From the sequence record MN850637.1: DNA of 64,000 bases; one strand, given 5' to 3'. Below, piece after piece: positions 2,738 through 58,522 of this stretch. Under the pieces are notes generated by a model. The model saw only the letters and a list, made by a program, of their open reading frames with translations, was not told the origin of the DNA and searched no databases. A program made the position numbers and the translations under genes. Numbering within the stretch: the stretch's first letter is position 1; every line of letters begins with the position of its first letter. Source of the DNA: Escherichia phage warpig.

Positions 2738-3289
2738 TCAACTTAGTTTTGCAAACTCTCCGTGGAGTTTAATAGCAGCTTCACAGTAAGCTTTATGGGC
2801 TTCTTCAGGGGTGTCAAACATACCAAGATGATAGTTTTTACCTTGTAAACGTATCATTGCTCGAAACCTTTTACTTATCTTCTGTACACCTTTTGGCAAC
2901 CCAGATGGGGACTCTCTTGACCGATTGCAAGAGTTTTGTGAAGCTGTACAAACCCTTAAATTCAAGTACCTATTGTCCCAACCGTCCCCATTCTTATGGT
3001 CAACCTGTAAGGTTTTATCAGGTAGATATCCATCCATATACAAGACAACTAAACGATTTGCTTGGTAACCCCTTCCATCAATCAGCAACTGAACTGACTT
3101 GTGTCCATCAGTATTTGTTCTGTAGTTTCCAGCCCTCTTACCTCCAAATCTAGAGTTAAAGTTTGCATTACCTTCTCTAAACTTCCAAGTAAAGACCCCT
3201 GTTTCGGGGTCGTAGTCCAATAGCTCCTTAAGACGAATTTCTGTAATCATTTCAACACCATCAATGTACCTCATACCAGCTCTTACCAA
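2738..3289 (-). CDS. HNH homing endonuclease with AP2-type DNA-binding domain
   Basis: VDHKNGDGWDNRYLNLRV HNH core plus C-terminal AP2-like segment; sits directly 3' of the intron-containing polymerase gene and overlaps its last codons. Confidence 0.7.
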   Translation of the reverse strand: MVRAGMRYIDGVEMITEIRLKELLDYDPETGVFTWKFREGNANFNSRFGGKRAGNYRTNTDGHKSVQLLIDGRGYQANRLVVLYMDGYLPDKTLQVDHKNGDGWDNRYLNLRVCTASQNSCNRSRESPSGLPKGVQKISKRFRAMIRLQGKNYHLGMFDTPEEAHKAYCEAAIKLHGEFAKLS

Positions 3290-3817
3290 CCTTACCTGTG
3301 CCAGTTACAAGCGTCTCACTCTTCAAACCTAAATTCTTAGATGCCTGACCATACATCCAGTCAGTTATGGCTTTAACTTCTTGAGTCATACTTTCTGGGC
3401 ATTCCCAACTGTTTTCATCGTGGTATGCCAGCAAAAGCCTAGCACCGATTGCTGGTTTTCGTCCATTTAATTTTGTCAATCCTTCTTCACATGCTCTTCT
3501 ACAAGCAAGGTTAATTGCCTCGTTCTGAATCTGGCTTTCCGAACCCATGAGCAAATAATTCAATAACTTATGTGGAGATTTACACCACAACCATGCACCT
3601 GCTACCTTTACAAAACCCCCTTTAGAGATTGCAGCAGTCTTACCAAACACCTCTTCAAGTGCCTTTTTAGTTGCTTTGTAGTCAGCTTCCAAGTCATCTA
3701 GCAGCTTCTTAATTTTAGGCAAACGAATAAAGTAAGTCTGTTTAGTCAGCGCACCTTCCTGAGTAGTTGCAGCCTTAATCGTCTTAGCAAACTTCTCATC
3801 ACCTGCACCGAACAATA
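3261..3817 (-). CDS. DNA polymerase (family A, T7-like), exon 2
   Basis: Begins inside motif B (LFGAGDEK) and contains SPHK and YHDE (motif C) regions that align with my recollection of T7 DNA polymerase C-terminus. Confidence 0.85.
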
Positions 3818-4128
3818 CATCTGGTCAATACACTCGCAAGGTGTACCAGTTCTCTTATGAACTTCTCCGCATTTCTACGGAGTGTCGGACTATATCACGT
3901 AGTAATAATACTACCGTTGCACTTGGGAATGGTCATTAGCTTACCACCCTACTCTACTCAGTTCATACATTAAGTATGCTTTTCGATAGTCTCTGAACGT
4001 TTCTCTGTTAGGAATCTCTATAGTTATGTTATTTGCTTTAGGAGTCCTAACAGAGACTTCGCTGCTGATTACCATATCTTTACAGACTTAGGCTTCCAGC
4101 AATTCACAACGTTTTACATGCGCCACTG
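3818..4128 (-). mobile_element. group I intron, ORF-less, inserted in polymerase motif B
   Basis: About 310-nt gap between pol exons; minus strand carries R-like GTTCAGAGACTA (3987-3998) and S-like GATATAGTCC (3887-3896) in the expected order; boundaries inferred from frame restoration (IYALLFGAG), within a few nt. Confidence 0.75.
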
Positions 4129-6271
4129 ACGCATAGATACCATTCTTAGCCTTCTTACGTCCTTTGCTAATCTCATGAAGAAGATTCTCATCCTGAGTAG
4201 CTCGACAAGTCAAGATGTCCTGCTCATCATTCAAGTTAAAGTAAATACTATTCAGTGTATGTGCATCAGTCCCTGAATAGACAACGTACAGGTCATTCTC
4301 AGAGTCATAGTGAAGGTACTTATCAATCTCTGGGTTGAGATACTCATCGAAGTGTTTGCAGTAATAGCGTCCATCTTCTTGACGAGTAAACTCAATCTCT
4401 TCTTTACCTTGCGTTACCGCTTTGGTGAACTCTTTATCACCCATAAAGTTACAAAGGAGAACTAGCTGGGCTGAGTTCATATCAACGGAGACTACGTTGG
4501 TTCCCTCTTCGCAAATCCACACCTCCCTCATAGGCGCTCCATAGACAGCAGCACCAGACGGTACGTTTACAATACCATATTGTGTCATACGTCCAGTTGA
4601 AGTGCCAAACACCATTGCACCAGCACTAAGGCGACCATCAGGACGAATCTGGTTCAACCAACCTTTTTCATCATCCTTTGAGTTCTCAATAGTTCTGCGT
4701 CGGTGCATCAAAGTATAGTACTTAGCAATCTTCTGTCCAAGCTCACCTTCAATCGTATCATAAGATGATTCAGTAAGTTTTGGTGAAGTACGGATTAAGC
4801 AAGGTTCAAGCAAATCTGTGTATTTCTTCACAGACCAGTTATGCTCGATGTACTGTACACCTTCATGTTCAACATAACTCAAACCACACCGCTCAACCAT
4901 TTCCTGCCACTTAGGATGCTTTGTAATCATCTTTTTATTGTCTTTGAAACGACAAACTTTGATAGGGCGACCATCTGAGTCTTTCTTGTAATTCCAGTCA
5001 TCTGGAATCCAACCAACTGATTTCAAGTAGTCTTTAACAACTGCTACCTGAGTCATACGAGAAACTTCAAACTCAATTGGTGTATATGGTGCATCAATCA
5101 AACCTGTGTAGCGACTTGACTCAAGTTCAAAGTGATTGACAACGTGACTGTTATAGTACTTCACAGTCTTGACTGTTTTTACTGGTTTCCAGTCTTTGCA
5201 TTTTTTGCCAATCTTTGCATTCAACTCGTTGCAGATTGCACGAGCATCCTTCATCGCTACAAAACCCTCTTTGTACTCTTCACCAGTTACAGAGTTGGTT
5301 GGTGTATAGCAATTCCTTTTTTCAATGTTAAAAATCTTTGTAGTTGGCTTACCAAATGGCTTGATTTCGTATGTCTGCATCTCACCGTTACGCACCTGTT
5401 GACGATACTTTGTCTTAGGATACTTGGTAATTCTCTTCAGTCCATCTGCATGACCAAATGTTTCAACATACTCATTCCAAGCTTTTGCAAACTCTTCTCC
5501 AGTGACTTTACCTTTGGTCTTAATAGTTGGAGGTAGATGTGGTTCAACCTCTGAAGCAAGCTCATTAGTCAACTTGTCAAGCTCCTTTACATGGAACTCC
5601 ATAAGCTCTTTATCAGCTTTCCAACCATTGATAGCTTGTTGACTCATCCAGAAAGATGTTTCTTTAGCTCGCATGTAAGTTTCATAAGTGTCTATACCAC
5701 ACTTCTTAAGCTTGAGATACTCGTTATCAAGTGCCCGTTTAGTTTTGGCATTAATACGGATATCTTCTACAACACGAGTGAAGATTTCTGCATTCCACAC
5801 ACCCCAATGTTCAATCTCTGGTTTACGGACACCAACACGAGCACCCCATGCAGCCAAACCATGAGCACCTTTATAGCCCTTTGGAGTTGGTCTATCCATC
5901 CACTGAACACGGGACTGGATAAGAGAATCCTGAAAGAAATTACTCCACGGTTTACACTTTGGATTATCAAAGTTCCATAAATCAGGTGCAATGTGATTAA
6001 AAACCCACCAGTCATAACCGAGACCGTTATGGATGCAAAGACGTTTTGCCTTTAACGCAAACTCAATACCTTCTCGTAAGCCACCCTTAATGTACTTAGT
6101 GTACTTGTGACCGAGGATAGGCTCATCTGTAAAGACCCATACAGGTGGCTCTTCATCGTCAGATTTATAGTCTGCAAAGGCCATTACGTGAACTTTAGTG
6201 AACTCAAGGAGTAAACCATCAGTTTCTGTATCACCAACCAAATGTAAGTTTTTAAAATCTACGTTTTCCAT
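4129..6271 (-). CDS. DNA polymerase (family A, T7-like), exon 1
   Basis: Exo I motif VGDTETDGL, T7-pol-like blocks (GLAAWG, YTPIEFEV, motif A VDMNSAQL), ends within motif B (RKKAKNGIYA); RBS GAGGGAG before ATG at 6271. Confidence 0.9.
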
Positions 6272-53812: not shown

Positions 53813-53889
53813 CTCTGTTTAGCTCAGCTTGGTAGAGCGTTCCGTTTGGGGCGGTAAGGCCGGAGGTTCAAGTCCTCCAACAGAGACCA
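53813..53889 (+). tRNA. tRNA-Pro (anticodon TGG)
   Basis: Hand-folded: acceptor CTCTGTT/AACAGAG, D-arm GCTC...GAGC, loop TTTGGGG, T-arm GGAGG-TTCAAGT-CCTCC, CCA encoded. Confidence 0.7.
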
Positions 53890-53896
53890 AATTAAT

Positions 53897-53974
53897 GTTC
53901 CAGTAGACAAAATGGTAAAGTCACCACTCTTTCAAAGTGGATATTTGAGGGTTCAAATCCCTTCTGGAACGCCA
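53897..53974 (+). tRNA. tRNA-Glu (anticodon TTC)
   Basis: Acceptor GTTCCAG/CTGGAAC, anticodon stem CCACT/AGTGG, loop CTTTCAA, T-loop TTCAAAT, CCA encoded. Confidence 0.7.
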
Positions 53975-54064
53975 GTTTTGACAGAAGACCAATTACAGCA
54001 AACTTAATCTACTCATCTGACACGAAATCGGACAAAGAAGATATTTGGTCTGGTCATTAAGAAT

Positions 54065-54141
54065 TGCGGGTATAGAGAAAGGGCGTCTCACATGTCTCAT
54101 TAGCATGGTATCGGCAGGTTCGACTCCTGCACCCGCCTCCA
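54065..54141 (+). tRNA. tRNA-Met or Ile2 (anticodon CAT)
   Basis: T-arm GCAGG-TTCGACT-CCTGC, acceptor 3' ACCCGCC, anticodon loop CTCATTA; position 37 is T (atypical). Confidence 0.55.
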
Positions 54142-54182
54142 AATTTACAGAAGACCGTTTACAGCAAAACTTAAACAATCTA

Positions 54183-54255
54183 TTTCTCGGTAAAGAAAAG
54201 GCGAAGGTTCGATTCCTTCACTCGGCAGATGTCGAGTTGGTGTAATGGTAGCACT
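54183..54255 (+). ncRNA. tRNA-like locus with permuted half order (3' half then 5' half)
   Basis: Hairpin (54183-54198) + T-arm GAAGG-TTCGATT-CCTTC + acceptor 3' ACTCGGC-A, 3 nt (GAT), then acceptor 5' GTCGAGT + D-arm GTGT-AATGGTA-GCAC; anticodon arm unresolved. Confidence 0.35.
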
Positions 54256-54426
54256 TAAGATGGTAAACAACGGTCTGGTAATTATCTTTGTAGATAAGTT
54301 ATTAAGCTTACCTGTGAGTATGCGACCACAAAGGGTGAAGGGTAAATTCTAGATTTAAACCCAAAAAGGCACATCGCTACAGACCTTAAGCAAGTCTGGG
54401 TAGCTTATCTACAAAGATAATTTAAT

Positions 54427-54502
54427 GGAAGTGTAGCAGAATGGTGATGCGGCAGACTTTTAATCTGACAGGCGATGGGTTCGAATCCCTCCACTTCTAC
54501 CA
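54427..54502 (+). tRNA. tRNA-Lys (anticodon TTT)
   Basis: Acceptor GGAAGTG/CACTTCT, loop CTTTTAA, T-loop TTCGAAT, CCA encoded. Confidence 0.7.
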
Positions 54503-54506
54503 AAAT

Positions 54507-54583
54507 GGTTCAGTCGCAGATAAGGTAATGCAAGGGTCTCATAAGCCCTATGAATGTGGGTTCGATTCCCATCTGAACCTCCA
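54507..54583 (+). tRNA. tRNA-Met or Ile2 (anticodon CAT)
   Basis: Acceptor GGTTCAG/CTGAACC, anticodon stem AGGGT/GCCCT, loop CTCATAA, T-arm GTGGG-TTCGATT-CCCAT. Confidence 0.7.
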
Positions 54584-54585
54584 AT

Positions 54586-54660
54586 TGTGGGTTAGCATAA
54601 ATGGTAATGCAAACGGCTGATAACCGTTAGAAGAGGGTTCGATACCCTCACCTACAACCA
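54586..54660 (+). tRNA. tRNA-Ile (anticodon GAT)
   Basis: Acceptor TGTGGGT/ACCTACA, D-arm GCAT...ATGC, anticodon stem AACGG/CCGTT, loop CTGATAA, T-arm GAGGG-TTCGATA-CCCTC. Confidence 0.8.
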
Positions 54661-54675
54661 ATTTCAATAAAGTTG

Positions 54676-54704
54676 TTGACATTGAGATGTGACCACTTTA
54701 TAGT
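54676..54704 (+). promoter_or_regulatory. sigma70-like promoter inside tRNA cluster
   Basis: TTGACA - 17 bp - TATAGT. Confidence 0.55.
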
Positions 54705-54908
54705 AACCTTAGTTTTCGTTGCGTAGCGTCTATTTTGCAAATTTAAAATAAATGCAAACGACAATGTTTTTCTGGCAGTAGCTTGATAGGCTAAACACCA
54801 GTGAGGTCTTCCAATCCCTCATCAAAGAATTTGGCGTACTCGCCCACGGTATGATTAATAAGGTGGGCATCTTTAAGGGCTTTCTAAGAGAGTCTTTAAA
54901 GATAATTA

Positions 54909-54990
54909 CGGGGCGTATCTCATCTGTCTTCTAAACAGACGTTAACCGAGTAAGTGGAGTATGCGGGTTCGAGTCCTGCCGCCTCGACCA
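54909..54990 (+). tRNA. atypical tRNA-like gene (anticodon loop TCTAAAC, long extra arm, minimal D region)
   Basis: Acceptor CGGGGCG/CGCCTCG with A73-CCA, T-arm GCGGG-TTCGAGT-CCTGC, hairpin TGTCT-TCTAAAC-AGACG; only about 7 nt where a D-arm should be. Confidence 0.4.
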
Positions 54991-55004
54991 ATTTTGGAGA
55001 AATC

Positions 55005-55352
55005 ATGAAAACTTGTATTAGGTGCAAACTTAGCAAGGATGAAAATGATTTCTACATGAAAGATGGTAGGAGAACTCATTCATACTGTAAAAAGTGTGTT
55101 AATGAGCAAACCATAGAAAGACAAAGAGCACTTAAACTCTCAGCTATTGAGTACAAAGGTGGGGTTTGTCATGATTGTGGTAAGAAATATCATCCAGCAG
55201 TGTATGACTTCCATCATTTGAATCCTTCAGATAAAGATTTTAACATTGGTCATAGGAAAAGCCTTAAGTTCTCTCAAGAACTAAAAGATGAACTTGACAA
55301 ATGTGTTTTGCTATGTTCAAATTGCCATAGGGTAAGACATGCAAAGTATTAG
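55005..55352 (+). CDS. HNH endonuclease
   Basis: 116 aa from ATG with RBS GGAGAAATC; CxxC...YDFHHLNPSDKDFNIG...LLCSNCHR HNH motif; embedded in tRNA cluster. Confidence 0.7.
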   Translation: MKTCIRCKLSKDENDFYMKDGRRTHSYCKKCVNEQTIERQRALKLSAIEYKGGVCHDCGKKYHPAVYDFHHLNPSDKDFNIGHRKSLKFSQELKDELDKCVLLCSNCHRVRHAKY

Positions 55353-55489
55353 TTAGCAGATTACTTAGACGACCTAAGCGGGTCTTCCTGTAGGGAGGTG
55401 GTCTGTATCTCATGTTTTCCAGAACATGTAAATAATCTGAGAAGGGGCTTTACAGTGTTGAGATAATACGGTAAGCTTCGAATTATAGT

Positions 55490-55572
55490 GTGGGACGATG
55501 TTAAGACTCTAAGGCATGAGCAACGGCTTCCAACACCGTTTCAAAGGGGTTCAACTCCTCCGTCCCATGCCA
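55490..55572 (+). tRNA. tRNA, possibly Trp (anticodon CCA), atypical D region
   Basis: T-arm AGGGG-TTCAACT-CCTCC, acceptor GTGGGAC/GTCCCAT, G73-CCA; anticodon stem AACGG/CCGTT with TTCCAAC loop; about 6 extra nt in D region. Confidence 0.4.
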
Positions 55573-55585
55573 AAGTCTTATTAGG

Positions 55586-55673
55586 GGTAGGTAGCGGCTA
55601 ATGGTAGCCAAACAGTCTTGAAAACTGTTGCCACTGTAGAGATACGGTGAGGGTTCGACTCCTTTACTTACCG
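55586..55673 (+). tRNA. tRNA-Ser (anticodon TGA), type II
   Basis: Acceptor GGTAGGT/ACTTACC, anticodon stem ACAGT/ACTGT, loop CTTGAAA, long variable arm, T-loop TTCGACT. Confidence 0.7.
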
Positions 55674-55829
55674 CCTAATAAGATTTAAAGCCAAGCTTCA
55701 TTCGGATGTCGCTTTGGTATCCCTCGTGTATTGTCGTACACACTGATAAAACACCTAGTAGGTGTCACGGAGAAGAGATAATATCAAGCTCTCCAAAGGT
55801 TCTAGTCACCGGATTAAACAAGACTATGC

Positions 55830-55851
55830 AAAGACCTTTTTAGGTCTTTTT
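55830..55851 (+). terminator. rho-independent terminator
   Basis: AAAGACC-TTTTTA-GGTCTTT followed by TT. Confidence 0.5.
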
Positions 55852-55930
55852 AGAGGGCTTCTAAGGTTATTACAGCTTGTTGTGGAACCTTGTTGCTTAG
55901 GTTCTTAGAAGTTCTCTAAAAAGATTTAAT

Positions 55931-56008
55931 GGGAGATTGACGGTAATTGGTAAACCTACCATCCTTAGAAGTTGGTGTTTGAGGGTTCGAATCCCTTGTC
56001 TCCTACCA
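55931..56008 (+). tRNA. tRNA with Leu anticodon TAG, short variable arm
   Basis: Acceptor GGGAGAT/GTCTCCT, A73-CCA, D-loop AATTGGTAAA (Leu-like), loop CTTAGAA, 5-nt variable loop, T-loop TTCGAAT. Confidence 0.5.
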
Positions 56009-56015
56009 AATTAAT

Positions 56016-56091
56016 GCAGGTGTAGCAAAATGGTTATGCGGCTGACTCTTAATCAGTAAGACGATGGGTTCAATTCCCTCCACCTGTACCA
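56016..56091 (+). tRNA. tRNA-Lys (anticodon CTT)
   Basis: Acceptor GCAGGTG/CACCTGT, anticodon stem GCTGA/TCAGT, loop CTCTTAA, T-loop TTCAATT. Confidence 0.7.
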
Positions 56092-56097
56092 GACATT

Positions 56098-56173
56098 GGG
56101 GTCATAGTTTATATGGTTAAAATTCGAGTTTTGCAAACTTGGGAACTGAGTTCAATTCTCAGTGACTCCACCA
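56098..56173 (+). tRNA. tRNA-Ala (anticodon TGC)
   Basis: Acceptor GGGGTCA/TGACTCC with G3-T70 wobble (Ala identity pair), loop TTTGCAA, T-arm CTGAG-TTCAATT-CTCAG. Confidence 0.75.
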
Positions 56174-56179
56174 ATTAGT

Positions 56180-56254
56180 GCATCCATAGTTTAAACGGGA
56201 AAATTACAGTCTTCCAAACTGAGGTTGAGGGTTCGATTCCCTCTGGATGCTCCA
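56180..56254 (+). tRNA. tRNA-Gly (anticodon TCC)
   Basis: Acceptor GCATCCA/TGGATGC, loop CTTCCAA, T-loop TTCGATT. Confidence 0.75.
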
Positions 56255-56261
56255 AATTAAT

Positions 56262-56337
56262 GCTCCTATCGTATAATAGGCTATTACGGTTGCCTTGTAA
56301 GCAACTTATCAGGGTTCGAATCCTTGTGGGAGCACCA
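56262..56337 (+). tRNA. tRNA-Thr (anticodon TGT)
   Basis: Acceptor GCTCCTA/TGGGAGC, anticodon stem GTTGC/GCAAC, loop CTTGTAA, T-loop TTCGAAT. Confidence 0.8.
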
Positions 56338-56443
56338 ATTCAGAGGTCAAGTGAAAGACCGCTGGTGTCAACTGAAGACCGTAACAAATTCCACGGAGTT
56401 GAGTTAGCGGCACAACTTCAGACCTCTTTCACACTCGCTTAGT

Positions 56444-56518
56444 TTATATGGTAAAACACCACCCTTACAAGATGAAGAAAAAGGTTCAAGTCCTTTAGTG
56501 AGTACCATGTTCCAGTAT
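56444..56518 (+). tRNA. tRNA, possibly Val (anticodon TAC), weak anticodon stem
   Basis: Acceptor ACTCGCT/AGTGAGT, D-arm GTTT...AAAC, T-arm AAAGG-TTCAAGT-CCTTT, CCA; anticodon arm has two mismatches. Confidence 0.4.
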
Positions 56519-56519
56519 C

Positions 56520-56597
56520 CCAATTGGCAGAGGATGCAAGCTCAAACCTTGTATTAGTGACGGTTCGAATCCGTCTTGGAACACCAATTTTAAGAGG
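56520..56597 (+). tRNA. tRNA with Leu anticodon CAA, short variable arm
   Basis: Acceptor GTTCCAG/TTGGAAC, A73-CCA, D-arm TCC-CAATTGGCAGA-GGA (Leu-like D-loop), anticodon stem GCAAG/CTTGT, loop CTCAAAC, 6-nt variable loop. Confidence 0.5.
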
Positions 56598-56605
56598 CTA
56601 TTTAG

Positions 56606-57163
56606 ATGAGATATTTGAAGTATGCTTCATGGATTTTCCTAGCTTTACTAGAGCCATTTGCAGCAACCCTAGCAGTCATCTTAGCACCTTTCGTAGTTCC
56701 ATTCTACAGTGAGAAGAAAGGACACCTACCTTTTGGATTCAGATGGATGGAGACCTATGACAACCCAATTGATGGTGATGAAGGTCACGTTAAAAGATGG
56801 GCTAAGATTAGAAAGATTGGTAAGCTGGGTGTCTACATGCAGAGAGTTGGATGGCTCTGGAGAAACAAAGCTTATAACTTCTCTTACCATGTATTAGGAA
56901 GAGATGTAAAAGATGTTACTAAGTGGAAAGGCAATATCAACGTAAGTTCTGACCCTGAAGATAATCAGACTGGTTATCTCCTAATGTGGAATAGCAATGC
57001 TTGGGGATTATTCGCTTTTATCCCATCAATTAAAGTCTTTGGTAAACAGTTTTACTGGAGAATTTATATTGGATGGAAACTAAAAAGCGTTGTCCCAGAA
57101 GAAAGAGCATTCTCAAGGGAAAGAGTTATGTTGGCATTCTTTATTCATCCACTGAGAAAGTAA
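56606..57163 (+). CDS. membrane protein inside tRNA cluster
   Basis: 185-aa ORF with N-terminal hydrophobic helices. Confidence 0.45.
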   Translation: MRYLKYASWIFLALLEPFAATLAVILAPFVVPFYSEKKGHLPFGFRWMETYDNPIDGDEGHVKRWAKIRKIGKLGVYMQRVGWLWRNKAYNFSYHVLGRDVKDVTKWKGNINVSSDPEDNQTGYLLMWNSNAWGLFAFIPSIKVFGKQFYWRIYIGWKLKSVVPEERAFSRERVMLAFFIHPLRK

Positions 57164-57171
57164 AGATTTAA

Positions 57172-57247
57172 AGGGGATTAGTTTACAAGGTTAAAACCTC
57201 GGTCTTTGAAATCGAAGAAGTTGGTTCAATTCCAACATCCCCCGCCA
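57172..57247 (+). tRNA. tRNA-Gln (anticodon TTG)
   Basis: D-arm GTTT...AAAC, anticodon stem TCGGT/ATCGA, loop CTTTGAA, T-arm GTTGG-TTCAATT-CCAAC, G73-CCA. Confidence 0.7.
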
Positions 57248-57249
57248 AT

Positions 57250-57328
57250 GCTCCATTACTCCAATTGGCAGAGAGGCCAGACTTAAAATCTGTGTTATGT
57301 ATCGGTTCGAATCCGATATGGAGTACCA
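57250..57328 (+). tRNA. tRNA with Leu anticodon TAA, short variable arm
   Basis: Acceptor GCTCCAT/ATGGAGT, A73-CCA, D-arm CTC-CAATTGGCA-GAG (same as 56520 tRNA), loop CTTAAAA, 7-nt variable loop, T-arm ATCGG-TTCGAAT-CCGAT. Confidence 0.5.
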
Positions 57329-57333
57329 AATTT

Positions 57334-57409
57334 AGCGGTATAGCATAACTGGCAATGCAACAGTCTCTGAAACTGTCCTATTAAGGTTCAAATCCTTATG
57401 CCGCTGCCA
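57334..57409 (+). tRNA. tRNA-Gln (anticodon CTG)
   Basis: Acceptor AGCGGTA/TGCCGCT, D-arm GCAT...ATGC, anticodon stem ACAGT/ACTGT, loop CTCTGAA, G73-CCA. Confidence 0.75.
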
Positions 57410-57440
57410 CTTCTAAGGGTTCTTACGAGAGTCCTTAAAT

Positions 57441-57516
57441 GTGGCCTTATCATAAATGGTAATGACCCATGCTGTGAACATGGTCTATACGGGTTCAAAT
57501 CCCGTAGGTCACCCCA
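57441..57516 (+). tRNA. tRNA-His (anticodon GTG)
   Basis: Acceptor GTGGCCT/AGGTCAC, anticodon stem CCATG/CATGG, loop CTGTGAA, T-arm ACGGG-TTCAAAT-CCCGT. Confidence 0.75.
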
Positions 57517-57521
57517 ATTTA

Positions 57522-57597
57522 TAGTCCAAGTAGCTTATATGGTGAAGCGCGTGTCTGAAAAACATGAGAAGAGGGTTCAAATCCCACTGGACTACCA
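57522..57597 (+). tRNA. tRNA-Phe (anticodon GAA)
   Basis: Acceptor TAGTCCA/TGGACTA, anticodon stem CGTGT/ACATG, loop CTGAAAA, T-loop TTCAAAT; 3' end register ambiguous. Confidence 0.6.
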
Positions 57598-57613
57598 ATT
57601 TCAAAGGTGCTTA

Positions 57614-58348
57614 ATGAAAGAGATGACAGAACAAGGTAAGGAGATTTTTAATCTCTTAAAAACCGGTAAAGGGTTTTCTAACCCACTTATTACTGGTGCA
57701 GCAGTTCTCGGTGGAACCGTAGCTGCCTCTACATCACTTGTAAGCTCTATTAGCTCTGTAACAGACCCTACAATGAAGGAGAAGCTTGTTGCTGCTGGAC
57801 TTACAACAGTCCTTCTAAACAGCTTTACAACAAGCCTGACAAGCACTACAGCAACCACTAAGACCCTAACAGACTATGGTCAAAAGTCTATTGATGAGTT
57901 TTCATCACGTATGCAGGTAGCAAAGGGATATTCCAATGTTATGGGTGCAGCAGGAGAACAAGTTGGTTGTACACCATTCAGTGGTATTATGGGTGTTGCT
58001 ACAGAGTATGGTCAAAAAGCTATTGACATGATTAACAGCACACTAGACAGTGTTAACGGTGTGTTAAGTGACTTACAAGACGCTATTGATAAGGGTCTTG
58101 ATACTGTTTCTGATTTAGCTAATCAGGCTGTTAGTAAGATTAATGAAGGTATCTCAAAGATTACAGCTTATGCAGATGAAGTTGTGCAGATGATTGAAGA
58201 AGAAGCTGCCCTTATTGCAGAGTACCTTAAAACGAATATCAATGGGTTCTTAGCAGGTATCTTACCAGACTGGTTTGATGATGCTTGTAAAACTGGTGTA
58301 ATCGACACTATTGCAACACCAGAAATGAAGAGCGCATTACAGAAATAA
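57614..58348 (+). CDS. hypothetical Ser/Thr-rich protein inside tRNA cluster
   Basis: 244 aa from internal ATG (track ORF at 57398 reads through three tRNAs). Confidence 0.45.
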   Translation: MKEMTEQGKEIFNLLKTGKGFSNPLITGAAVLGGTVAASTSLVSSISSVTDPTMKEKLVAAGLTTVLLNSFTTSLTSTTATTKTLTDYGQKSIDEFSSRMQVAKGYSNVMGAAGEQVGCTPFSGIMGVATEYGQKAIDMINSTLDSVNGVLSDLQDAIDKGLDTVSDLANQAVSKINEGISKITAYADEVVQMIEEEAALIAEYLKTNINGFLAGILPDWFDDACKTGVIDTIATPEMKSALQK

Positions 58349-58349
58349 T

Positions 58350-58442
58350 GGAAGATTAACCCTAAAAGGTAAGGGAGCAGTTTGCTAAACTGCCAGTAGC
58401 TGAGAAATCGGTGTACCAGTTCAAGTCTGGTATCTTCCTCCA
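58350..58442 (+). tRNA. tRNA-Ser (anticodon GCT), type II
   Basis: Acceptor GGAAGAT/ATCTTCC, anticodon stem GCAGT/ACTGC, loop TTGCTAA, long variable arm, T-arm ACCAG-TTCAAGT-CTGGT, CCA. Confidence 0.75.
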
Positions 58443-58446
58443 ATTT

Positions 58447-58522
58447 GAATCCGTGACAGAAATGGCTATGTGCCTGTCTGCAAAACAGGTTTATAAGGGT
58501 TCAAGTCCCTTCGGATTCTCCA
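58447..58522 (+). tRNA. tRNA-Cys (anticodon GCA)
   Basis: Acceptor GAATCCG/CGGATTC, anticodon stem CCTGT/ACAGG, loop CTGCAAA, T-arm AAGGG-TTCAAGT-CCCTT, CCA. Confidence 0.75.

Follow-up and report, generated by a model that had tools for sequence, protein, structure and literature searches.

An endonuclease-less group I intron interrupting the motif B codons of the Escherichia phage warpig DNA polymerase gene, probably derived from a mobile intron and lying beside an apparently independent HNH-AP2 homing endonuclease gene

Group IA2 introns are known from genes for DNA polymerase in the T7-like phages PhiI and W31 (I-TslI) and in SPO1, SP82, Bastille and Pf-WMP3 (I-HmuI, I-HmuII, I-BasI and I-PfoP3I) (PMC3428280). 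In phage T4, mobE mediates the trans homing of the nrdB intron, whose I-TevIII is defunct (PMC2790892), and collaborative homing has been described for the psbA intron of cyanophage S-PM2 and F-CphI (PMC6083498, PMC3984707). An 'endonuclease turnover' hypothesis was put forward for the origin of loci that resemble collaborative homing (PMC10448857). Here, we describe a group I intron devoid of an endonuclease open reading frame (ORF) in the gene for the DNA polymerase of Escherichia phage warpig (MN850637.1), together with the free-standing HNH-AP2 gene that follows the polymerase gene. All coordinates refer to the window, that is the whole 64-kb stretch of warpig DNA that was analysed. The literature search turned up no description of the intron as such, of its variants without endonuclease or of how it relates to the adjacent gene. 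An ORF-containing form had already been noted in passing, since the Endonuclease VII-motif proteins of the phages JH2, EC6 and FSL SP-010 were listed as 'intron-encoded' members of an F-CphI-like family (PMC6083498). Taken as a whole, the comparisons reported below make it probable that the locus associates an endonuclease-less derivative of a mobile intron with an independent neighbouring HNH-AP2 homing gene.

Like the group IA2 introns cited above, the warpig intron has a family A polymerase gene as its host, possesses both P7.1 and P7.2 and is without P2, and the endonuclease ORF, when there is one, is located in P6a. It differs from them by its insertion site (about 763/764 versus 674, 676 and 881) and by the endonuclease of its sister form, which belongs to the Endonuclease VII family. 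The parallel with T4 is that a free-standing HNH gene adjoins a gene whose intron has lost its endonuclease; by contrast, the warpig endonuclease gene is downstream of the host gene and encodes an AP2 DNA-binding domain. In S-PM2, too, the intron lacks an endonuclease and a free-standing endonuclease gene lies next to it. However, the free-standing enzyme of the Felixounavirus phages coexists with unaltered intron-less sites, so the defining feature of collaborative homing is probably absent here, and it is in the intron of sister phages that the F-CphI-like (Endonuclease VII) enzyme is found.

The window is a Felixounavirus sequence. The 4-kb region around the intron is 99.1% identical to Escherichia phage garuso and matches 259 phage records, nearly all of them from Felixounavirus, the Felix O1-like myoviruses of E. 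coli, Salmonella, Shigella and Citrobacter. On the plus strand, 53813-58519 holds 21 clustered tRNA hits, in keeping with a Felix O1-like genome. The polymerase gene, the intron and the HNH-AP2 gene are all carried by the minus strand, and the interrupted gene is organized as follows.

4129..6271, minus strand: DNA polymerase exon 1, with the exonuclease domain, motif A and the first half of motif B; it ends with ...RKKAKNGIYA and the first nucleotide of a Leu codon
3818..4128, minus strand: group I intron of 311 nucleotides (nt), IA2-like, without endonuclease ORF, recognized by Rfam RF00028 and by its exact absence from intron-less relatives
3261..3817, minus strand: DNA polymerase exon 2, (L)LFGAGDEK..., with the remainder of motif B, motif C and the stop codon TGA at 3263-3261

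The only intron hit within the window was a match to Rfam RF00028 at 4140..3865 on the minus strand, which spans model positions 1-253 of 253 and reaches 63.3 bits for a gathering score of 50 (E = 1.1e-13). The boundaries were given by the relatives. In the Shigella phage JK55, in Ro111lw, Felix O1 and wV8, and in 17 IMG/VR contigs, the exon flanks abut (gap 0) where the window has 311 nt, and the intron is therefore 4128..3818. A preliminary description of this DNA, made from the letters alone, had proposed an interruption of about 310 nt with an R-like and an S-like element on the minus strand. The length proves to be exactly 311 nt, and both elements were located as announced, the R-like GTTCAGAGACTA at 3987-3998 and the S-like GATATAGTCC at 3887-3896.

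Exon 1 begins at 6271 (MENVDF, with GAGGGAG seven nt upstream), which is also the start annotated in JK55, Si3 and Mushroom, and its 3' end is fixed by the intron-less alleles. Without splicing, its frame reads 13 intron-encoded codons and then meets TAA at 4090-4088, which is the stop inside motif B from which the preliminary description had set out. When position 4129 is joined to 3817, the frame stays open over 899 amino acids (aa) and reads ...GRKKAKNGIYA/LLFGAGDEK, where the slash marks the junction. The splice proposed earlier, from U4129 onto 3817 and giving IYALLFGAG at the same length as in T7, is thus borne out: the spliced junction GRKKAKNGIYALLFGAGDEK aligns with the T7 polymerase TRDNAKTFIYGFLYGAGDEK without gap over motif B (T7 stretch ...AKTFIYGFLYGAGDEK), and the family A signature of this motif (R..K...Y...Y/F G) is uninterrupted across the junction. 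The Pfam family DNA_pol_A matches exon 1 and exon 2, each weakly. In T7 terms the insertion point corresponds to the boundary of residues G527 and F528 (about 763/764 when numbered as in E. coli Pol I), and the intron occupies the O-helix (motif B) codons of a family A DNA polymerase gene. As this gene is an essential one and the phages are viable, we infer that the RNA is spliced, presumably by the intron itself, to encode a single 899-aa polymerase.

The helices of the intron were placed by hand and are given in window coordinates.

P1: 4135-4129/4123-4117, minus strand, 7 base pairs, with U4129 (before the 5' splice site) paired with G4123
P3: 4111-4105/3921-3915, minus strand
P4: 4101-4096/4068-4063, minus strand
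P5/P5a: 4092-4084/4079-4072, minus strand, with a GUAA loop
P6: 4062-4061/3998-3997, minus strand
P6a: 4056-4045/4013-4002, minus strand, a perfect helix of 12 base pairs
P7: 3991-3987/3892-3888, minus strand, the pairing of R with S
P7.1: 3978-3964, minus strand, between P7 and the 3' strand of P3
P7.2: 3949-3925, minus strand, between P7 and the 3' strand of P3
P8: 3914-3899, minus strand
P9: 3882-3865, minus strand, with a GAAA loop
P9.1: 3862-3849, minus strand
P9.2: 3848-3822, minus strand

The preliminary description had named an Rfam search, whose result is given above, and a fold of 3818-4128 as ways of checking its proposal, and the fold likewise turned out in its favour. The core helices P1 and P3 to P9 could be placed, P2 being absent from this manual model. 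The intron ends with a terminal G at 3818, and a P10 of 5 base pairs (CAGUG/UAUUG) is possible. In the eight intron variants available from relatives, all 90 of the 90 pairs are standard, with compensatory changes from U-A to C-G in P6a and in P8 and four further one-sided changes that preserve pairing; the U.G pair before the 5' splice site and the terminal G are invariant (8/8). As variation among these sequences is low, such agreement speaks for consistency and gives modest covariation support to the model. In parallel, an unconstrained free-energy fold recovered P3 to P9.1 (-87.6 kcal/mol, z = -4.3), with P3, P4, P5, P6, P8 and P9 among the helices it contains, and P7.1 and P7.2 appear in the manual model and in this fold alike. 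Subgroup IA2 is characterized by P7.1 and P7.2 with a G-U-A linker between them (PMC3428280). In the warpig intron GUA directly precedes P7.2, yet the linker between P7.1 and P7.2 has 14 nt; the layout is IA2-like, as for other phage polymerase introns (PMC3428280). The element is a genuine group I intron whose coordinates are exactly known.

The intron had been described as having no ORF. This holds for an endonuclease ORF, none of which is found inside it; the sole ORF is a non-conserved one of 44 aa (3941..4075), annotated as a 'hypothetical protein' in garuso and EC106. This candidate gene was rejected as almost certainly spurious, as its frame is broken in the 801-nt and 268-nt forms of the intron presented below. 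In addition, a tblastn search of the 64-kb window with the Endonuclease VII-family ORF of the sister phages gave no match.

When the 311-nt intron was used as a query, it was found in about 104 Felixounavirus records, always at one site and in three size classes. The counts that relate these forms to the endonuclease sites, given further below, come from four search listings and include duplicate RefSeq and GenBank records.

311 nt: the form of the window, about 10 records, without endonuclease ORF
about 801 nt: the ORF-containing form, about 41 records, with a 160-aa ORF in the P6a loop
268 nt: the short form, about 53 records, without ORF and without the P6a extension

The ORF-containing form, represented by JH2, EC6, FSL SP-010, Si3 and BPS15Q2, has the same site and the same flanks (TATGCGT/TATTG) as the intron of the window, and its core is 96-100% identical to it. 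Its 160-aa ORF matches the Pfam family Endonuclease_7 with 70.8 bits, the nearest solved relatives being Hpy99I and T4 endonuclease VII. At the gathering threshold, Rfam gave no match in the 801-nt form of Si3; this miss is not evidence of intron absence because the insertion of the ORF breaks the match, whereas the core is conserved to the extent just mentioned. Compared with this form, the window is without 491 nt that comprise a ribosome-binding site and the ORF, except for the last three codons. The trace of this difference lies in the P6a loop.

4016..4044, minus strand: P6a loop with the putative scar of the lost endonuclease gene, from alignments of the three intron forms; deletion junction near 4038/4039

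Imperfect direct repeats border the ORF of BPS15Q2 and VpaE1: GACTCCTAAA is situated upstream of the ribosome-binding site, and GACTACCTAA corresponds to Asp-Tyr-Leu codons near the end of the ORF. Taking out the 491 nt between these repeats from either intron leaves a P6a region identical to that of the window. The scar AGCAAATAA followed by CATAACTATAGAG matches the last codons (Ser-Lys-stop) and the 3' flank of the Endonuclease VII-family ORF in both phages, and the window thus keeps AGC AAA TAA. The '...YL..' C-terminus is typical of the Endonuclease VII-type family, for example of a Yersinia phage homologue and of Hpy99I, and for this reason the retained bases are more likely to be a remnant of the ORF than original intron sequence. 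VpaE1 itself carries an intronic ORF with a 22-nt frameshifting deletion that splits it into two annotated ORFs (L029 2609-3069), and its free-standing site is empty; by its sequence, this ORF appears as a decaying intermediate. The intron of the window is most likely a deletion derivative of the ORF-containing form, as judged from these alignments. A 491-nt deletion between imperfect direct repeats would have removed the ribosome-binding site together with the ORF and left its last three codons. The resulting 311-nt intron, issued from a mobile ancestor that still exists in sister phages, would be unable to move by itself.

Several signs of such past mobility are visible. Between the window and SPT-1, BPS15Q2, L27 and similar phages the ribozyme is 96-100% identical, while the 100 nt on each side are 73-85% identical (flanking exons overall 73-90%). 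Intron-containing alleles all read TATGCGT/TATTG at the junction and intron-less ones GCNC/TGYTR (TATGCAC/TGCTG in JK55 and Ro111lw); these synonymous differences provide for the pairing of P1 and for the U that precedes the splice site. A nearly identical intron within diverged flanks is the pattern expected of an endonuclease that cuts at the insertion site, and the sequences indicate a recent horizontal spread over diverged polymerase alleles with short conversion tracts. A scan of IMG/VR for an intron-less allele with intron-type flanks GCGTTATTG, as expected of a naive recipient or of an allele from which the intron was precisely lost, returned 0 hits, versus 17 for the usual GCNCTGYTR. 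Scans of the same database for the intron forms returned 1, 0 and 0 hits, the last of these patterns having a wrong spacer length and being uninformative, and added almost nothing to the GenBank isolates.

A related element was found outside the genus. The T7-like Yersinia phage AKS2022HT54F_phi (L005 3344-4000) has an un-annotated group I intron with an Endonuclease_7 ORF in its polymerase motif B. This ORF shares 51% identity with its Felixounavirus counterpart, and the 14-nt P9.1 hairpin GTTCATAAGAGAAC is identical; by eye, the remaining ribozyme sequence could not be aligned. The intron was rejected as the same insertion as it is situated 11 nt upstream, between the codons of T7 F524 and I525. 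The two introns are probably related, to judge by these shared parts, and reside at different sites. Comparable introns were mentioned in the Yersinia phages Berlin and YpP-G (PMC6083498). Weak DNA matches to Staphylococcus phage 6ec and Erwinia phage MIF8 were not retained as the same intron, as they lie in other genes and share only the P3-P5 core; further weak matches concerned crAss-like and Bacillus phages. The matches to MIF8 and 6ec pointed to un-annotated group I introns, beside an N4-like RNA polymerase gene in the former (L031 about 2966-3247) and in a split endolysin gene in the latter (L032 3001-3530).

The second element of the locus lies downstream of the polymerase gene.

2738..3250, minus strand: free-standing HNH-AP2 homing endonuclease gene, 170 aa, '523-nt' allele, with Pfam HNH_3 and AP2, between the polymerase stop and the next gene
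3194..3211, minus strand: hairpin GACCCCGAAACAGGGGUC then UUUACUUGG, a terminator-like hit in the 5' part of the endonuclease gene

In the window allele HNH_3 scores 46.1 bits (cut-off 24.8) and AP2 26.6 bits, which is under its cut-off of 33.3, AP2 reaching 38-48 bits in three sister alleles. The HNH core VDHKNGD...N aligns to I-HmuI, the nickase of the SPO1 polymerase intron (PDB 1U3E, E = 0.0014). The gene had first been placed at 2738..3289, overlapping the 3' end of the polymerase gene. Its ORF, its domains and its downstream position are as described, but the overlap came only from the longest ORF (TTG 3289), the start conserved among alleles being ATG 3250 (MITEIRLKELL), which lies 10 nt beyond the polymerase stop codon (3263-3261). 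No HNH-AP2 paralogue was seen elsewhere in the 64-kb window. As for T4 mobE, no promoter-like match was found directly upstream of the gene, and the hairpin within its 5' part recalls the mobE internal terminator. The stem of this hairpin (GACCCCGAAACAGGGGTC, with a U-rich tail) is nucleotide-identical, synonymous sites included, in three otherwise diverged alleles in which only the loop varies, and the hairpin may be a regulatory or terminator-like element.

The site after the polymerase stop is polymorphic. It is empty, that is reduced to a 10-nt spacer, in 99 of about 259 records, and when occupied it holds one of four HNH_3 plus AP2 alleles (inserts of 485, 512, 523 and 537 nt). The 512, 523 and 537 alleles (L003, L006 and L007; window 2738-2800) share their last ~60 nt (...TPEEAHKAYCEAAIKLHGEFAKLS stop) and are otherwise diverged; these common 3' ends suggest a cassette-like exchange between alleles. 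A fifth state of the site, with a ~220-nt insert that has no endonuclease and is annotated as an extra hypothetical protein, was observed in UAB_Phi87, PK6, EcoM2, P54, JH2 and pEP20. Compared with empty-site phages, the first 300 nt of exon 2 are 86-97% identical and the last 257 nt 71-80%. The divergence linked to the endonuclease is therefore confined to the terminal ~250 nt of the polymerase gene, ending ~300 nt short of the intron. This is the usual footprint of a free-standing homing endonuclease with a target near its own insertion point, and the HNH-AP2 gene looks like a separate selfish element that has an insertion site of its own, at the stop codon of the polymerase gene. By this reading of the tract, the enzyme would most likely cut near its own insertion site in phages that do not have the gene, and it could carry the intron, 557 nt upstream, solely by co-conversion.

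Other explanations of the locus were weighed against this one. The GenBank records list two separate polymerase coding sequences, exon 2 being a 'putative DNA polymerase' with a TTG start, which would imply that no splicing takes place and that the polymerase is made of two associating polypeptides (737 aa and 184 aa). This is extremely improbable: the break lies inside the O-helix, exon 2 would need its TTG start with no Shine-Dalgarno-like sequence apparent upstream of it, the polymerase is encoded by one continuous gene in relatives, and what interrupts the gene is a group I ribozyme that is complete, scores above threshold and has the correct features at its splice sites. A strict collaborative homing was considered next to it, in which the HNH-AP2 enzyme would recognize a sequence across the intron site, and the intron would split this sequence and so protect the genome. 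The arrangement fits, as the host gene of an endonuclease-less intron is itself neighboured by a free-standing endonuclease gene, and among the matches listed, all endonuclease-less introns that were scored (49/49: eight of 311 nt and 41 of 268 nt) stand beside an occupied site. Moreover, four synonymous differences lie right at the site (GCGT/TATTG versus GCAC/TGCTG). However, these changes are explained by the pairing of P1 and by the U required before the splice site, and a cut at the insertion site, with co-conversion tracts as short as those around the intron, should often move the intron without the endonuclease gene, a situation met in 0 of the 49 genomes. Further, the same HNH-AP2 allele, with one amino-acid difference, is present without any intron in JK55 and in at least 13 other records, and between -37 and +63 their insertion site does not differ from that of empty-site phages such as Ro111lw; the same was seen in L017, which has the 512 allele. 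As the HNH-AP2 enzyme would cut its own genome in JK55-type phages, it is unlikely to cut the intron-less insertion site, and collaborative homing in this strict sense must be regarded as improbable, if somewhat less so than an unspliced polymerase.

A trans homing by hitch-hiking is harder to dismiss, and it overlaps with the preferred reading, an endonuclease-less intron beside an independent homing gene, rather than excluding it. Here the HNH-AP2 enzyme would nick or cut the 3' part of the polymerase gene of phages without the endonuclease gene, and repair on the donor genome would copy this gene and sometimes extend 557 nt further to include the intron, for which the neighbour would be the only remaining drive. 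The association with the occupied site is an argument for it, given that 99 of the ~259 records are empty at this site and that the ORF-containing introns among the matches listed are about 14 occupied to 19 empty, the intron-less genomes being split about evenly. A naive Fisher test gives p of about 1e-10 to 1e-13. In the same way, endonuclease-less introns are found with at least four different neighbour alleles, the divergent tract linked to the endonuclease reaches ~250 nt into the polymerase gene, and there are the precedent of T4 mobE (PMC2790892) and the idea of 'endonuclease turnover' (PMC10448857). Nevertheless, the records are related and not independent, and with the six distinct combinations of intron form and allele p rises to about 0.06. 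Linkage alone could also give the pattern, the occupied site being expected to persist in crosses, and each deletion may have happened a single time, in a genome whose site was occupied. The visible breakpoints, of the window versus EC106 and versus empty-site phages, are near exon-2 position 300 and short of the intron; their place, downstream of the intron but before the endonuclease gene, argues against co-transfer as the rule. Finally, the sole decayed intronic ORF seen, that of VpaE1, is in an empty-site genome. Trans homing is hence a possibility that we hold to be rather doubtful, and the earlier proposal that the neighbouring endonuclease helps intron mobility is, in the terms in which it was made, unsupported in view of the ORF-containing sisters, of the unchanged sites in the JK55 type and of a divergence that stops ~300 nt too early. 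The preferred reading has its own weak points. An independent endonuclease does not by itself explain why 0 of the 49 endonuclease-less introns are beside an empty site, and the direction of the change (loss of the ORF and not gain) relies on parsimony, an invasion by the ORF that used pre-existing intron sequence as its end being the alternative. In addition, the 268-nt form could be ancestral and not a further deletion.

Felix O1 was reported to have no introns (PMC3185647), which is right for this intron-less phage but not for the genus, as ~40% of the public Felixounavirus genomes (~104/259) carry the intron. In public records the intron is un-annotated or mis-annotated as two polymerase genes, as a 44-aa 'hypothetical protein' or as 'endonuclease VII', and one comparative paper took the Felixounavirus 'endonuclease VII' for a repair enzyme. 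The present analysis adds an insertion point in motif B (O-helix) to the polymerase intron sites listed in the accessible literature. The element is an ordinary though instructive one that would not surprise a specialist of mobile introns. Yet the stages found at this single locus include intron-less alleles, introns whose gene is either intact or frameshifted and two kinds of introns with a deleted gene, next to a site that is empty or filled with one of four alleles. It is conceivable, although we consider it fairly unlikely, that the genus holds every stage of 'endonuclease turnover' at one locus and that ORF-less introns survive only beside an HNH-AP2 gene that drives their co-conversion. 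The E. coli K-12 phages of the genus span the main combinations of intron form and endonuclease site, and they could be crossed to follow autonomous homing, trans homing and decay. If the turnover reading is true, they would offer a natural and genetically tractable coliphage test of how loci resembling collaborative homing arise.

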